Source: Escherichia coli
GTDB lineage: Bacteria > Pseudomonadota > Gammaproteobacteria > Enterobacterales > Enterobacteriaceae
NCBI RefSeq assembly: GCF_003019035.1
Contig: NZ_CP027447.1
Length of the DNA: 64,000 bases
Direction: 5' to 3' (one strand)
The notes beneath the pieces are model-generated. The model searched no databases, was not told the DNA's origin, and worked only from the letters and a program-made list of their open reading frames with translations. Made by a program: the position numbers and the translations under genes. Shown here one piece after another: positions 4,902 through 10,164 of the stretch (positions are counted from its first letter, which is position 1; each line of letters opens with the position of its first letter).

Positions 4902-5945
4902 ATGCGTATTGAAGAAGATCTGAAGTTAGGTTTTAAAGACGTTCTCATCCGCCCTAAACGCTCCACTCTTAAAAGCCGTTCCGATGTTGAACTGGAACGT
5001 CAATTCACCTTCAAACATTCAGGTCAGAGCTGGTCCGGCGTGCCGATTATCGCCGCCAATATGGACACCGTAGGCACATTTTCTATGGCCTCTGCGCTGG
5101 CTTCTTTTGATATTCTGACTGCTGTGCATAAACACTATTCTGTCGAAGAGTGGCAAGCGTTTATCAACAATTCTTCCGCTGATGTGCTGAAACATGTGAT
5201 GGTTTCTACCGGCACGTCTGATGCGGATTTCGAAAAAACTAAACAGATTCTCGACCTGAACCCGGCATTAAATTTCGTTTGTATTGACGTGGCGAATGGT
5301 TATTCCGAACACTTCGTGCAGTTCGTTGCGAAAGCGCGTGAAGCGTGGCCGACCAAAACCATTTGTGCAGGCAACTTAGTGACTGGTGAAATGTGTGAGG
5401 AGCTTATCCTCTCCGGTGCCGATATCGTTAAAGTTGGCATTGGCCCAGGTTCTGTTTGTACAACTCGCGTCAAAACAGGCGTCGGTTATCCGCAACTTTC
5501 TGCGGTGATCGAATGTGCCGATGCTGCGCACGGTCTGGGCGGAATGATCGTCAGCGATGGCGGCTGCACCACGCCGGGCGATGTCGCGAAAGCCTTTGGC
5601 GGCGGTGCCGATTTCGTAATGCTTGGCGGCATGCTGGCGGGCCACGAAGAGAGCGGCGGTCGCATCGTTGAGGAGAACGGCGAGAAATTTATGCTGTTCT
5701 ACGGCATGAGCTCAGAGTCTGCGATGAAACGTCACGTTGGCGGCGTTGCGGAATATCGCGCAGCAGAAGGTAAAACCGTTAAGCTGCCGCTGCGAGGCCC
5801 GGTTGAAAATACCGCGCGTGATATTTTGGGCGGCCTGCGTTCAGCTTGTACATACGTTGGGGCTTCACGCCTGAAAGAACTGACCAAGCGCACCACGTTT
5901 ATCCGTGTGCAGGAACAAGAAAACCGCATCTTCAACAACCTGTAA
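4902..5945 (+). CDS. guaC: GMP reductase
   Basis: 347-aa ORF; IMPDH/GMPR TIM-barrel signature [11 protein letters not shown]. Confidence 0.96.
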
Positions 5946-5951
5946 TATACC

Positions 5952-5981
5952 AACGCTGGCGTGGAGCAACACGCCAGCGTT
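5952..5981. terminator. Bidirectional terminator-like hairpin between convergent guaC and hofC
   Basis: Perfect 12-bp stem aacgctggcgtg / cacgccagcgtt with 6-nt loop immediately after the guaC stop. Confidence 0.6.
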
Positions 5982-7182
5982 ATCCCATTCCACTCATCGC
6001 ATCGCCTAAATGGAAAATTGGCAGATACATTGCCACCACCAGCGTACCGATAATTCCTCCCGTTATGATCAGCAACGCCGGTTCCAGTAAGGCTGCGAGG
6101 TTATCCGCCAGCGCCATTGTGTTATCCCGATGATGATGGGCGAGGTTGTCTAACATGAGATCCAGCGAGCCGGATGCCTCTCCTGTTCTCACTAATTGCA
6201 AACAGAGCGGGCTAAACTCACCGGCATTTTTTAGCGCCAGCCAGATGGGGTGACCGTTACTGATATCGTGCTGGATTTGTGTCAGAAGTTGCACCCAGTA
6301 CGGGCAGCGCATTGTTTCTCTGACGCTCTCAACGCCCTGTAAAAAAGTAATGCCTGCACTTTGTGTCAGCGCCAGAATCGTAAAGATCTGCGTGAGTTTT
6401 TGTCCCCGCATCAGTGAACCCATAATCGGGATGCGTAACAGCAATTTCTGCCGTGCGATAAGCCTGGTTGGGTGGCGCATCAGCAGCTTATTGGCTATCG
6501 CCAGCAGAAAGCCGAATAGCACCAGCAACCAACCCCATTCGCCACTAAAGCTTGCCAGCGTCATGATCCCCTGCGTTAGCGCCGGTAGCGGAGTGTTAAA
6601 GGTCTTATAGATAGCGGCAAACTCCGGCAGAACAAAATGCAGCATTGCCACAACCACCATGATTGCCATCGCTAAAATGATAATGGGATAACGTAACGCT
6701 GATTTCACTTTGTCGGTCAACTGACGCTGGGCTTTTTGTTGACGCGCCAGTTCAAAGCAGCATTCATCCAGCTTACCGGTCAGTTCACCCGTGCGGATCA
6801 TCGCCTGATAGAGCGGCGGAAATACCTCTGACCAGGGTAATAAGGCATTGGAAAAGGCAATGCCCTGTTCGAGATCGTGTGCCAGCGATTGCAGCAACGC
6901 TTGCCATTGCTTACTGGGATGCTGTTCCGCCAGCAGTGCCAGCCCTTCAGAAAGCGTTAACCCGGCTTTGAGTAGCGTCGCCAGTTGATGAATGACTTCC
7001 GCGCTTTTATCTCCTCGCCACTGCGCAGAATTGATGGCGATTCGCTTCAGGCTAAGTGGGGTAACCATCTGTTGCTGTAGTGCCATAAGCAGTAAAGCAC
7101 GACTCTCTGCCCATAGCATCCCATCTTGCGCATTACCGTCGCCGGTTATGCCATGCCAGCGCCAGAGTTGCTTACTCGCCAT
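5980..7182 (-). CDS. hofC: Type IV pilus assembly inner-membrane platform protein (GspF/PilC family)
   Basis: 400-aa ORF with GspF-like duplicated domain architecture; overlaps hofB stop by 11 nt. Confidence 0.92.
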   Translation of the reverse strand: MASKQLWRWHGITGDGNAQDGMLWAESRALLLMALQQQMVTPLSLKRIAINSAQWRGDKSAEVIHQLATLLKAGLTLSEGLALLAEQHPSKQWQALLQSLAHDLEQGIAFSNALLPWSEVFPPLYQAMIRTGELTGKLDECCFELARQQKAQRQLTDKVKSALRYPIIILAMAIMVVVAMLHFVLPEFAAIYKTFNTPLPALTQGIMTLASFSGEWGWLLVLFGFLLAIANKLLMRHPTRLIARQKLLLRIPIMGSLMRGQKLTQIFTILALTQSAGITFLQGVESVRETMRCPYWVQLLTQIQHDISNGHPIWLALKNAGEFSPLCLQLVRTGEASGSLDLMLDNLAHHHRDNTMALADNLAALLEPALLIITGGIIGTLVVAMYLPIFHLGDAMSGMG

Positions 7183-8557
7183 GCGGCATCCCCAATACGC
7201 GGATTAACTCTTCAAAGGTGGTTAAGCCTTGCTCCACGGCCAGGCAGCCGTTTTCAAAAAGCGTATGCATACCCGCCTGTCGGGCGTGCATTTCCAGCGA
7301 TTCAACGTCGGTATTAGCGGAAATAAGCTGACGTATGACCGGTGTTATGGGCAGAACTTCAAATAAGGCCGTGCGACCATAAAAACCGTGGTAGCAATGT
7401 ACACAACCGGGTGCCTGCCAGTGGGGCAGCGGCGACGGCCATACATTGTCTGGAATATGGATGGGCTCCTCTTGCTGTCGGCGACAATGTGGGCAAAGTT
7501 TACGTACCAGACGCTGGGCTATTACCAGCGTAAGTGCCGATGAAAGCATCCAGCGAGCAACGCCCATTTGCTGTAAACGCACCAGCGTTTCGCAGGTGGA
7601 ATTGGTGTGTAGCGTGGACAACACCAGGTGACCGGTTTGCGCGGCTTTTATGGCAATTTCTGCCGTTTCGCCATCGCGGATCTCTCCGATCATGATGACG
7701 TCAGGGTCCTGGCGCAATAACGCACGCAAAACGCCCTGAAAGGTGAGTCCGGCACGCGGATGGATTTGCGTCTGGTTTAGTCCGGCTATGGGGATCTCAA
7801 CCGGATCTTCGACGCTACAAATATTAATGTCAGCGGTATTCAGCGTTTGCAGGGCACTATAAAGCGTGACCGTTTTGCCGCTGCCTGTAGGGCCAGTTAC
7901 CAGCACCAATCCCTGTGGTTGTTGCAATGCATGAGCAAAGTCCGCCAGTTGTAACGGCTGCATTCCCAGCGTGTTAACATCCAGTGCCTGGCTCACCTGC
8001 TGTAACAACCTTAATACCACCTTTTCACCACCCCGACATGGTAAGGTCGCAATACGAAATGAGACGGCGTTTCCTGCCAGTTCGACAGTGAATTGCCCGT
8101 CCTGCGGCAGGCGATGTTCCGCAATATCCAGATTTCCCAGCACTTTTAATCTGGCGGTTAATGCGACTCCGGCATCCGGTGAAACGTCCGGTAAAGGATG
8201 CAATACGCCGTCGATACGCAAGCGGATGCGGTAGGCATTGTCCGCTGGTTCGATATGAATATCAGACGCGCGTTGTTCCAGCGCAGACTGTAACGTTCTA
8301 GTCAGCAACTCTGCTTTGGGCTGATGCTTCTCCTGAACAGCTACGGGCAATGTCTGTTGTGTGCGACTGGCGTGACCTTCCATTTGTTGGCGCGTCCAGC
8401 AGGTGATCTCAATACGTTTGGTGGTAGCGAAATGCAATGCGTCCAGTAGCTCATGCGAAGGTGCATCGACTACCGCAACATGAACCACCTCTTCGCTGGC
8501 ATCCAGCAAGACTCCCTGATAACGCAGACACAGGGCGGTGAGCTGTGGAATATTCAT
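7172..8557 (-). CDS. hofB: Type IV pilus assembly ATPase (GspE/PilB family)
   Basis: 461-aa ORF; Walker A GPTGSGKT; C-terminal tetracysteine CPHC...CVHC. Confidence 0.93.
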   Translation of the reverse strand: MNIPQLTALCLRYQGVLLDASEEVVHVAVVDAPSHELLDALHFATTKRIEITCWTRQQMEGHASRTQQTLPVAVQEKHQPKAELLTRTLQSALEQRASDIHIEPADNAYRIRLRIDGVLHPLPDVSPDAGVALTARLKVLGNLDIAEHRLPQDGQFTVELAGNAVSFRIATLPCRGGEKVVLRLLQQVSQALDVNTLGMQPLQLADFAHALQQPQGLVLVTGPTGSGKTVTLYSALQTLNTADINICSVEDPVEIPIAGLNQTQIHPRAGLTFQGVLRALLRQDPDVIMIGEIRDGETAEIAIKAAQTGHLVLSTLHTNSTCETLVRLQQMGVARWMLSSALTLVIAQRLVRKLCPHCRRQQEEPIHIPDNVWPSPLPHWQAPGCVHCYHGFYGRTALFEVLPITPVIRQLISANTDVESLEMHARQAGMHTLFENGCLAVEQGLTTFEELIRVLGMPHGE

Positions 8558-8566
8558 TGCCGCTCC

Positions 8567-9007
8567 TTAGTTGGCGTCATCAAAGCGGAAGACATCTTCG
8601 CAGGCTTGCTGCAATGCGCTGTCACTTTGAATATTGCAGTTGCGCGTCCAGCCGGTGACGCCGTTTGCGTTATCCCAACCCGGCGTCATGACGACGCTTA
8701 GCCCATTGAGACTTTCTTGCCCGGTCAGCGACACCACGCCCTTTGCCACACTCATGGCTGAAACATAGCGGGTGGTGGTAGGCGAAGGAATACCATTGCT
8801 GCCACCGTCGCAGGTATTTAATCCACCATGTTCCAGCGCGCACAACTCTACGGCGGTACGGTAAGGCACAAAGGTTTGTAGCATGTCGGTGAGTGCGGCT
8901 TTGCGCAGGTAGTTTTGATAAGCGGGAATACCAATGGCGCTTAAAATGGCAATGATGCCAATAACCACCATCAGTTCGATAAGTGTAAAACCGCGTTGCT
9001 TGTCCAT
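8567..9007 (-). CDS. ppdD: Prepilin peptidase-dependent pilin PpdD (type IV major pilin)
   Basis: 146-aa ORF; class III signal and conserved N-terminus GFTLIELMVVIGIIAILSAIGIP. Confidence 0.93.
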   Translation of the reverse strand: MDKQRGFTLIELMVVIGIIAILSAIGIPAYQNYLRKAALTDMLQTFVPYRTAVELCALEHGGLNTCDGGSNGIPSPTTTRYVSAMSVAKGVVSLTGQESLNGLSVVMTPGWDNANGVTGWTRNCNIQSDSALQQACEDVFRFDDAN

Positions 9008-9210
9008 TTGTTTCGCTCCTTGATTTGGTTGGCGCTACTTTGGCAAACGCCATCAGCACAAGCGAGGGGCAAAAAACGAAACGGGAAAGCAGCTTCCGGA
9101 GTTTTTTATTACGTTGCAGCGAAAGACAAGAAATTTGCGAGGCGTTACGAAGAAAGTTGGGAAAGGGGAGATTTATCCGCCCGCGATGGAGCGGATAAAT
9201 CTGTCAGCAA

Positions 9211-10164
<954 letters not shown>

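Follow-up and report, generated by a model that had tools for sequence, protein, structure and literature searches.

The 64,000-nucleotide stretch of Escherichia coli DNA analysed here (the window) carries an intact ppdD-hofB-hofC cluster, and we are highly confident that it is a type IV pilus operon under Sxy/CRP-S control, an explanation that takes in the predicted geometry of its promoter. The operon is a well-known one in E. coli, where it is normally silent, and the finding itself is already known. Its practical value is that of a correctly annotated landmark, and it indicates that a divergent lineage retains an intact pilus and competence module that can be controlled by Sxy. The three genes encode the major pilin (type IVa), a hexameric assembly ATPase and the inner-membrane platform protein of E. 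coli's single chromosomal type IV pilus system. The genes and the structures that delimit them are:

8567 to 9007, minus strand: ppdD (hcpA), type IVa major prepilin of 146 aa, with a leader of six residues (MDKQRG) followed by FTLIE
7172 to 8557, minus strand: hofB, GspE/PilB-type assembly ATPase of 461 aa, Pfam T2SSE at 488.6 bits
5980 to 7182, minus strand: hofC, GspF/PilC-type inner-membrane platform protein of 400 aa, with Pfam T2SSF in two stretches
5952 to 5981, no strand assigned: hairpin at the convergent guaC/hofC junction, with a stem of 12-13 bp, overlapping the hofC stop codon
9016 to 9021, minus strand: ppdD Shine-Dalgarno sequence AAGGAG, its GGAG invariant in 16 Enterobacteriaceae
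9169 to 9202, minus strand: terminator hairpin of nadC, with a stem of 14 bp (dG -21.7 kcal/mol, z -4.4)

The cluster is flanked by nadC on one side and guaC on the other. A preliminary description of this DNA had read it as a contiguous minus-strand operon with overlapping or closely spaced frames, and the measured junctions agree, with an overlap of 11 nt between hofB and hofC (ATGGCGAGTAA) and a gap of 9 nt, containing GGAG, between ppdD and hofB. The RefSeq gene boundaries of strain SCU-301, which is 100% identical to the window, match as well. The convergent guaC lies 34 bp past hofC, and the hairpin at this junction (dG -23.9 kcal/mol on the plus strand and -26.5 kcal/mol on the minus strand, z -5.4 and -4.7), which has no U-tract on either strand, is likely the transcript end shared by guaC and hofC. 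The genes, their order, junctions and neighbours are the same in K-12 (b0108-b0106), where the operon also belongs to the CRP-S/Sxy regulon. K-12 is nevertheless a different lineage (ca. 97% identity to the window, and ca. 97% at the nucleotide level in hofB/hofC), with a total of 16 amino-acid substitutions and with a 203-bp intergenic region that differs by eight substitutions and one 1-bp indel. At the amino-acid level the identities to K-12 are 99.3% for PpdD, 98.7% for HofB and 97.8% for HofC.

The identification of PpdD as a type IV pilin, proposed before from the motif GFTLIELM (residues 6-13), is backed by several lines. The class III signal is complete (MDKQRG|FTLIELMVVIGIIAILSAIG): a Gly closes the short, basic leader, and Phe at +1, Glu at +5 and a hydrophobic alpha-1 helix come after it. 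Pfam N_methyl is found at 39.9 bits (cut-off 21.2), the Pfam Pilin domain is marginal (21.9 bits vs. a cut-off of 22), and the NCBIfam equivalog for the prepilin peptidase-dependent pilin scores 269.1 bits (cut-off 138). In phmmer searches PpdD matched the solved pilus filament 6GV9 (E 1.5e-90) and also 6GMS (E 6e-75), so that a globular pilin domain of a kind that assembles into filaments is present; the chain in 6GV9 begins at PpdD residue 7, pointing to cleavage after G6.

HofB had been described as a GspE-type ATPase on the basis of its Walker A box GPTGSGKT, which we place at residues 222-229. It also has a Walker B-like box (VIMIGE at 287), the His-box motifs TGH at 308 and TLH at 315 and a tetracysteine motif (CPHC at 355, CVHC at 385), making up together with the T2SSE domain the full signature of a secretion ATPase. 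The assignment of HofC as a GspF-type platform likewise holds, with T2SSF (192 bits) matched twice and its own NCBIfam equivalog at 657 bits (cut-off 401). Given that the RefSeq product name is "type II secretion system protein GspE" and that the partial scores on the GspE and GspF models are strong, the three proteins could be taken for a type II secretion module. We consider this very improbable. HofB passes only one equivalog among PRK10436, GspE and PilB, namely PRK10436 (824.5 bits, cut-off 617), and stays below the cut-offs of GspE (457.5 vs. 630.25 bits) and PilB (488.8 vs. 675.65 bits); HofC is under that of GspF (264 vs. 424 bits). Besides, PpdD matches solved type IV pilus filaments and gspC, gspD and gspG-M were not found nearby.

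The preliminary description called these genes cryptic, which is right for their expression in the laboratory and wrong if decay is meant. A silent, decaying remnant retained solely through its linkage to nadC, guaC and coaE could be suspected from the lack of expression in standard media and of a prepilin peptidase gene at the locus. This reading is refuted by selection and conservation and we give it practically no credence, and the prevalence and selection data likewise reject a pseudogene reading. The three frames are intact, with zero internal stops, the locus is carried by 5424 of the 5426 complete E. coli genomes, and dN/dS values against E. albertii (0.033 for ppdD, 0.082 for hofB and 0.063 for hofC) indicate strong purifying selection. 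Both synteny and the regulatory blocks of the locus have been kept across Enterobacterales, the pilus has been assembled and its structure solved, and the pilin is made when Sxy is induced.

The operon is not a complete one of the pilABCD type, as no pilD follows hofC here, and none of the 12 Enterobacterales loci with listed ORFs has a pilD-sized ORF 3' of hofC. In the Enterobacterales examined a convergent guaC separates hofC from coaE, and in Erwinia psidii coaE comes directly after hofC. The operon is not self-sufficient: in K-12, other loci supply the minor pilins (ppdAB-ygdB-ppdC), the alignment complex with the secretin (hofMNOPQ) and a prepilin peptidase (gspO or pppA). In the pilA / pilBCD-coaE arrangement of Pseudomonas aeruginosa, the pilin gene adjoins pilB and pilC, coaE lies further downstream, and regulation is by PilSR and sigma-54. 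The location of the pilin gene beside the ATPase and platform genes is thus common to both, whereas the operon described here has no pilD and is under CRP-Sxy control. The pilABCD operon of Haemophilus influenzae also has the order pilin, ATPase, platform and a CRP-S (CRE) site, with activation that requires CRP and Sxy at a site having C6 and G17 (PMC1635313). However, that operon includes pilD and its site is the palindromic TGCGA-N6-TCGCA, while here pilD is absent and the site is the asymmetric TTCGT-N6-TCGCA.

The heptamer TTTGCGA had been noticed before at 9134-9140, together with a caution that no full CRP-S site could be named with confidence and a proposal to scan the region with a CRP-S matrix. 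The heptamer is indeed there, on the plus strand, and forms the strong and conserved half of a 22-bp site, asymmetric in form, that the scan recovered and two independent matrices single out:

9133 to 9154, minus strand: CRP-S site TTCTTCGTAACGCCTCGCAAAT (TTC TTCGT AACGCC TCGCA AAT), with TCGCA as the strong half

The TCGCA half corresponds to TGCGA at 9136-9140 of the plus strand, and 136 bp separate the centre of the site from the ppdD ATG downstream. C6 and G17 are present, one half is perfect and all 22 bp are identical in K-12. This asymmetry agrees with the form of E. coli CRP-S sites, which pair a TGCGA half with a degenerate one, in either orientation (PMC6728893). With a matrix built from orthologues the site ranks first in the 64-kb window (21.1 vs. 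11.0 bits), and with an independent matrix from four K-12 sites it is seventh among ca. 128,000 positions. In at least 15 of 23 Enterobacterales lineages a half-site occurs 130-146 bp before the start codon of the pilin gene, so its position is conserved, while the N6 spacer varies freely and is different in every lineage. On the other hand, the bare core TGCGA-N6-TCGCA, with up to two mismatches, has 24 matches in the window where 44 are expected and is not rarer than chance, which justifies the earlier caution; it is only by position, conservation and flanking bases that 9133-9154 is significant.

The membership in the Sxy/CRP-S regulon, already claimed for this locus, has direct support in K-12, where a fragment containing the identical site bound CRP in gel shifts, the operon transcript (measured with hofB primers) increased 90-fold upon Sxy induction and this induction was abolished in crp and cyaA mutants (PMC1635313). 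Induction of sxy also leads to processed PpdD pilin (PMC3330819). By analogy, weak CRP binding and CRP- and cAMP-dependent induction by Sxy, as published for K-12, would be expected at the identical site of the window. The promoter would be silent without the joint action of cAMP-CRP and the co-activator Sxy (TfoX) at 9133-9154, and this dependence would be the reason why laboratory cultures have no pilin.

The role of the pilus in nature is a different question. DNA uptake, the function given in the preliminary description, stands as a published role but not as the only one, the second being that of an adhesive pilus in enterohemorrhagic E. coli (PMC2920817). The hemorrhagic coli pilus of EHEC O157:H7 is the same locus under a second name (hcpA = ppdD) and forms type IVa filaments, for which a solved structure exists (PMC2920817; 6GV9). 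One could propose that the main natural role is that of an adhesive or twitching surface pilus for host colonisation and that the competence label is a by-product of shared regulation. That report describes HcpA pili made by strain EDL933 in Minca minimal medium (ca. 35% of the cells positive, an hcpA mutant negative), with adherence, invasion, biofilm formation and twitching motility (PMC2920817). However, the Sxy-induced regulon leads to DNA uptake, with transformants detectable when lambda Red is supplied, and the same type of promoter site is present at comEA (ybaV), dprA (smf), comM (yifB) and sxy. Furthermore, a comparison of E. coli with E. cloacae shows a higher identity for the pilin (82%) than for the ATPase (65%) or the platform (55%), which is unusual for an adhesin exposed to immunity. 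An adhesive main role is possible, although we would not bet on it, and the two roles are compatible rather than exclusive. Natural transformation of E. coli has gone unobserved and no natural inducer of sxy has been reported. The phenotype described for EHEC is one of adhesion and inflammation on Minca medium (PMC2920817).

The upstream boundary of the ppdD control region is the nadC terminator hairpin, and equivalent hairpins adjoin the CRP-S site in other genera. Aligned across 16 genera, the 165-bp control region has an architecture of blocks at fixed spacing, almost free of indels, and K-12 differs within it by a few substitutions outside the conserved blocks. Apart from the CRP-S site, the elements are:

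9113 to 9119, minus strand: conserved block CTGCAAC, 13 nt past the CRP-S site
9103 to 9108, minus strand: A-rich hexamer TAAAAA, likewise conserved, with its start 35.5 bp past the CRP-S centre
9080 to 9101, minus strand: putative second, weak CRP-S-like site (CTC CGGAA GCTGCT TTCCC GTT), its centre 53 bp downstream from that of the main site
9062 to 9076, minus strand: conserved block TTTTTTGCCCCTCGC, at ca. -46 to -32 of the predicted start, its spacing fixed across genera
9037 to 9045, minus strand: predicted extended -10 element TGCCAAAGT, with TG at -15/-14 and the hexamer CAAAGT

In all 16 genera the motif TGnCAnAnT is fixed at its T, G, C, A and T positions, its middle A varying very little, and in CTGCAAC the T, G and A are invariant and the second A nearly so. 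We infer that TGCCAAAGT is an extended -10, which would drive transcription from a start at ca. 9030 (117,572 in K-12) and give a leader of 23 nt. The promoter has no usable -35 element, and a scan of 5800-9400 for the sigma-70 consensus gave no promoter-like sites. The literature searched yielded no mapped ppdD transcription start, and the accessible part of a Cappable-seq supplement has only plus-strand sites near the locus. With this start, the main CRP-S site would be centred near -113.5, and the segment 9080-9101, which its bases suggest to be a second CRP-S-like site, near -60.5, five helical turns away. It is the proximal site that, in our model, would contact RNA polymerase in class-I fashion. 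A published commentary has CRP-S sites at class-I distances from the start, with which a main site at -113.5 acting alone would not agree. The independent K-12 CRP-S matrix ranks the offset of the second site among the best 4% of offsets, or higher, in 17 of the 18 lineages, and in Yersinia this site has a perfect TCGCA half. The absolute scores are nevertheless poor (-4 to +5.8 bits vs. 10-20 bits for most main sites), and a sxy promoter construct with two weak halves was inactive (PMC6728893). The fragment used in the published gel shifts stops at ca. 9091 and contains just half of the second site.

The same layout is found upstream of K-12 ppdA and, in part, of hofM. At ppdA, where it extends across 9 genera, the offset of TTTTTTGCCCCTCGC is occupied by GGCCCTCGTC; CATACT lies at a ppdD-like distance from the CRP-S site (CA.ACT invariant in 9 genera), and TGCAA is conserved upstream in 9 genera, its G, A and A invariant. 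CTGCAAC has an identical offset in K-12 ppdA and is shifted by one nt in hofM, and at the offset where ppdD has TAAAAA, ppdA has TAAATA and sxy has TAAATT. We tentatively propose, as a model with somewhat less than even chances, that the pilus operons are controlled by a fixed-spacing module made of the CRP-S site, CTGCAAC, the A-rich hexamer, the second site and a CAnAnT -10 lacking a -35, shared across Enterobacteriaceae genera by ppdD and ppdA and, for the first four elements, by hofM, with a leaderless ppdA mRNA.

A simpler view is that the main CRP-S site acts alone as a class-I site at ca. -61.5, with the start at ca. 9082 and with GCCCCTCGC and TGCCAAAGT inside a 75-nt mRNA leader. It has in its favour a published commentary that places CRP-S sites at class-I distances, with AR1 needed and AR2 not, the H. 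influenzae sites near -62, -73 and -100, and the single site predicted at ppdD by Cameron and Redfield (PMC1635313). We consider it unlikely. The -10 that it predicts (9094-9089, AAGCTG) lacks a final T in every genus, its invariant bases being GAA, and the putative leader has no Rfam match, an unstable local hairpin and not a single conserved pair by RNAalifold in 16 sequences, the latter also speaking against any conserved leader RNA structure. Moreover, ppdA retains the block order with CATACT 6-7 nt before its ATG and no Shine-Dalgarno sequence, which makes sense only if CATACT is a -10 element.

Other readings of these blocks were discarded. A leader attenuator (a CGGAAGC...TTTCCCG hairpin plus T-run) has a dG of only -3.7 kcal/mol (z +1.15), so that the second site does not correspond to a stable RNA hairpin, and the sole Rfam hit, tpke11, was below threshold (20.3 vs. 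43 bits). Sigma-54 or sigma-32 promoters, considered by eye for GGAA...TTCC and CCCCTCGC, do not comply with the spacing and the GG/GC dinucleotide rule. TAAAAA is disfavoured as a -10, as the T at the last position is missing in most genera, and GCCCCTCGC/TTGCCC as a -35, as no genus has a -10 located 17 bp downstream.

The proposed module with two sites is reminiscent of class III tandem-site CRP promoters such as acsP2, which have sites ca. 53 bp apart and a weak core promoter. Conservation suggests a similar pair of CRP-type sites for ppdD, ca. five helical turns apart, although here, unlike in acsP2, both would be of the CRP-S type and the proximal one is very degenerate. If the module is real, it bears on how Sxy makes CRP function at CRP-S sites, and the blocks with no assigned role (CTGCAAC, TAAAAA and GCCCCTCGC) would be candidate contacts for Sxy or a further factor. 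A study of 2019 noted that conservation beyond the CRP site had not been described at E. coli CRP-S promoters (PMC6728893). The alignments presented here reveal further conserved blocks at fixed spacing in at least two pilus operons and partly in a third, which are targets for mutagenesis aimed at how Sxy and CRP turn on competence genes and at why E. coli holds these genes so tightly silent.

The ppdD-hofB-hofC operon is already known, and the gene coordinates and identities given in the preliminary description were borne out by the RefSeq annotation of strains SCU-301 and K-12 and by curated models (HofC equivalog model, 657 bits with the cut-off at 401; HofB, PRK10436, 824.5 against 617; PpdD, 269 against 138). 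Pfam matched T2SSF twice, T2SSE and N_methyl in the three products. The genes are:

5980-7182, minus strand, hofC
7172-8557, minus strand, hofB
8567-9007, minus strand, ppdD
9211-10104, minus strand, nadC

guaC is convergent with hofC. A 311-aa version of nadC from 10146 was rejected, its 14 codons beyond the annotated 297-aa gene (starting at 10104) being an ORF-calling artefact. The motifs quoted earlier, GFTLIELM and GPTGSGKT, lie at PpdD residues 6-13 and HofB residues 222-229; other motifs in HofB are VIMIGE at 287 and a CxxC pair at each of 355 and 385. The first residue of the solved PpdD pilus chain (6GV9) is query residue 7, implying cleavage after Gly6. The overlapping and closely spaced frames already described amount to an 11-nt overlap of hofB and hofC and a 9-nt gap, containing GGAG, between ppdD and hofB, so that translation of the three genes is coupled. 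A strong hairpin between the convergent guaC and hofC (5952-5981, 12-13-bp stem, dG -24 to -26.5 kcal/mol) overlaps the stop codon of hofC and lacks a U-tract on both sides.

The full CRP-S site (a CRP-type site needing the co-activator Sxy) that the preliminary description could not find is at 9133-9154, and the TTTGCGA noticed then at 9134-9140 belongs to it:

9154-9133, coding (minus) strand, CRP-S site, 22-mer TTC TTCGT AACGCC TCGCA AAT

It combines a perfect half, TCGCA, with a degenerate one, TTCGT, and has C6 and G17, the two hallmark bases. The bare core TGCGA-N6-TCGCA is not enriched in the 64 kb (24 matches against 44 expected, not rarer than chance) and is thus uninformative by frequency, so that the call needed other evidence, of which we found five lines. 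The 22-mer is identical in K-12, where it holds the only TGCGA/TCGCA within 300 bp upstream of ppdD; the published ppdDF/ppdDR fragment, which lies within these 300 bp (window equivalent 9222-9091), shows weak but specific CRP binding (PMC1635313). The K-12 operon transcript, measured by primers inside hofB, rises 90-fold with Sxy induction, an effect abolished in crp and cyaA mutants (PMC1635313), and processed PpdD pilin is detected after sxy induction (PMC3330819). In published work E. coli CRP-S sites are described as asymmetric, pairing a conserved half with a weak one in either orientation, both being required (PMC6728893); the site here has this form.

Among 23 Enterobacterales loci retrieved using HofB, all had a pilin gene immediately upstream of hofB, and in at least 15 an exact TCGCA or TGCGA had its centre 130-146 bp upstream of the pilin ATG. 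The N6 spacer differed in every lineage compared; a half-site that keeps its position while the six bases vary is characteristic of sites bound by protein. A matrix built from non-Escherichia orthologous sites alone ranked 9133 first in the whole window (21.1 bits, runner-up 11.0). The same matrix located the K-12 sxy, ybaV and yifB sites, coinciding with exact TGCGA/TCGCA half-sites, and picked best sites upstream of K-12 hofM and ppdA. With a second matrix, made from the four independent sites at K-12 sxy, ybaV, smf and yifB, the site was 7th of about 128,000 positions, and in the scan of 9008-9210 proposed earlier it scored 12.7 bits, the next 5.6. The ppdD and sxy CRP-S sites of K-12 have the 11-mer GCCTCGCAAAT in common. 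Each is centred 136 bp upstream of its own start codon and followed by a TAAAnn hexamer beginning 35.5 bp past the site centre.

What is added here, modest but testable, is the conserved promoter architecture of ppdD. On its upstream side the 165-bp control region, which ends at the ATG, is bounded by the terminator hairpin of nadC (9169-9202, dG -21.7 kcal/mol). Aligned across 16 Enterobacteriaceae genera, the region resolves into a series of conserved blocks, nearly indel-free between them:

9119-9113, minus strand, CTGCAAC
9108-9103, minus strand, TAAAAA
9098-9083, minus strand, CGGAA-N6-TTCCC
9076-9062, minus strand, T-run and GCCCCTCGC
9045-9037, minus strand, TGCCAAAGT

The blocks were rejected as an RNA element: RNAalifold found no conserved pairs in them, Rfam gave no match to the region, and the local hairpin was unstable. 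In the block TGCCAAAGT, the T, G, C, A and T of TGnCAnAnT are invariant in 16/16 genera. They coincide with the positions important for an extended -10 element (TG at -15/-14, A at -11 and T at -7). We therefore predict such an element at 9045-9037, which would place the start near 9030 and give a leader of 23 nt that includes AAGGAG. Counted from this predicted start, the main site would have its centre near -113.5 and the CGGAA-N6-TTCCC block, a candidate weak CRP-S-like site, near -60.5, the two being 53 bp (about five helical turns) apart. With an independent K-12 CRP-S matrix, offsets of 52-54 bp were in the top 4% or better in 17/18 lineages, at low absolute scores; in Yersinia nurmii the second block has a perfect TCGCA half. 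In published commentary, CRP-S sites are put at class-I distances and shown to depend on AR1 but not AR2 of CRP. A lone class-I site at ppdD would put the start near 9082, for which no genus in the alignment has a -10-like sequence, and we consider it unlikely. Two CRP-S-type sites with a start near 9030 would fit the class-I distance and AR1 dependence only with the weak proximal site occupied.

This layout has independent support from ppdA and hofM. K-12 ppdA has the ppdD blocks in the same order and at the same offsets (TTCGA-N6-TTCCC, CTGCAAC 13 nt on, TAAATA, CGGAA-N6-CCGAA, GGCCCTCGTC and CATACT), and its CATACT and the ppdD CAAAGT are equidistant from their respective CRP-S sites. Across nine genera the thyA-ppdA spacer (K-12 L084 6179-6365; L089-L096) keeps TTCC, TGCAA and CA.ACT, the last 6-7 nt ahead of an invariant ATG, and has no Shine-Dalgarno sequence before ppdA. 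Such a hexamer is sensible only as the -10 of a leaderless transcript, which suggests that the minor-pilin operon may be transcribed as leaderless mRNA. At K-12 hofM, ATCGA-N6-TCCCA is paired with TACGA-N6-CTGGA 53 bp downstream, and CTGCAAG is at the offset matching the ppdD CTGCAAC.

The window is E. coli, with 5900-9300 100% identical to strain SCU-301. The lineage carrying it is unusual, judged by the few close matches to this segment: of the 5424 complete E. coli genomes that match, only 4 reach at least 99% identity, the remainder, K-12 included, being at 95-99%. SMS-3-5 and wild-mammal isolates are among the next-best matches (98.7-99.5%), and three matches fell on records labelled plasmid. 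The locus was found in 5424/5426 complete genomes, its three frames are intact here (protein identity to K-12 97.8-99.3%) and dN/dS against E. albertii is low (ppdD 0.033, hofB 0.082, hofC 0.063). The earlier term "cryptic" thus stands as laboratory non-expression and fails as decay. The fastest-evolving type IV pilus component is usually the major pilin. Of the three proteins here, PpdD has changed least (identity between E. coli and E. cloacae 82%, HofB 65%, HofC 55%; dN 0.13, 0.26 and 0.39), which argues against immune-driven diversification. The preliminary observation is confirmed and its interpretation of the operon supported. Published work describes two roles, which do not exclude each other: Sxy-induced DNA uptake, with transformants only when lambda Red is supplied (PMC3330819), and, in EHEC on Minca medium, the adhesive hemorrhagic coli pilus (PMC2920817).

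The order ampE-ampD / nadC > ppdD > hofB > hofC < guaC / coaE is retained from Escherichia through Yersinia and Edwardsiella, with no prepilin peptidase gene (pilD) downstream of hofC in any Enterobacterales locus examined. In Erwinia psidii (L019, 4834-6978) coaE directly follows hofC, the convergent guaC being there in all others examined; this order is consistent with an ancestral pilBC(D)-coaE cluster that gained guaC and lost pilD early. Serratia silvae (L020, 1268-2821) has three extra ORFs (159, 224 and 139 aa) between nadC and the pilin gene, an interval that in other genera is the control region of roughly 200 bp alone.
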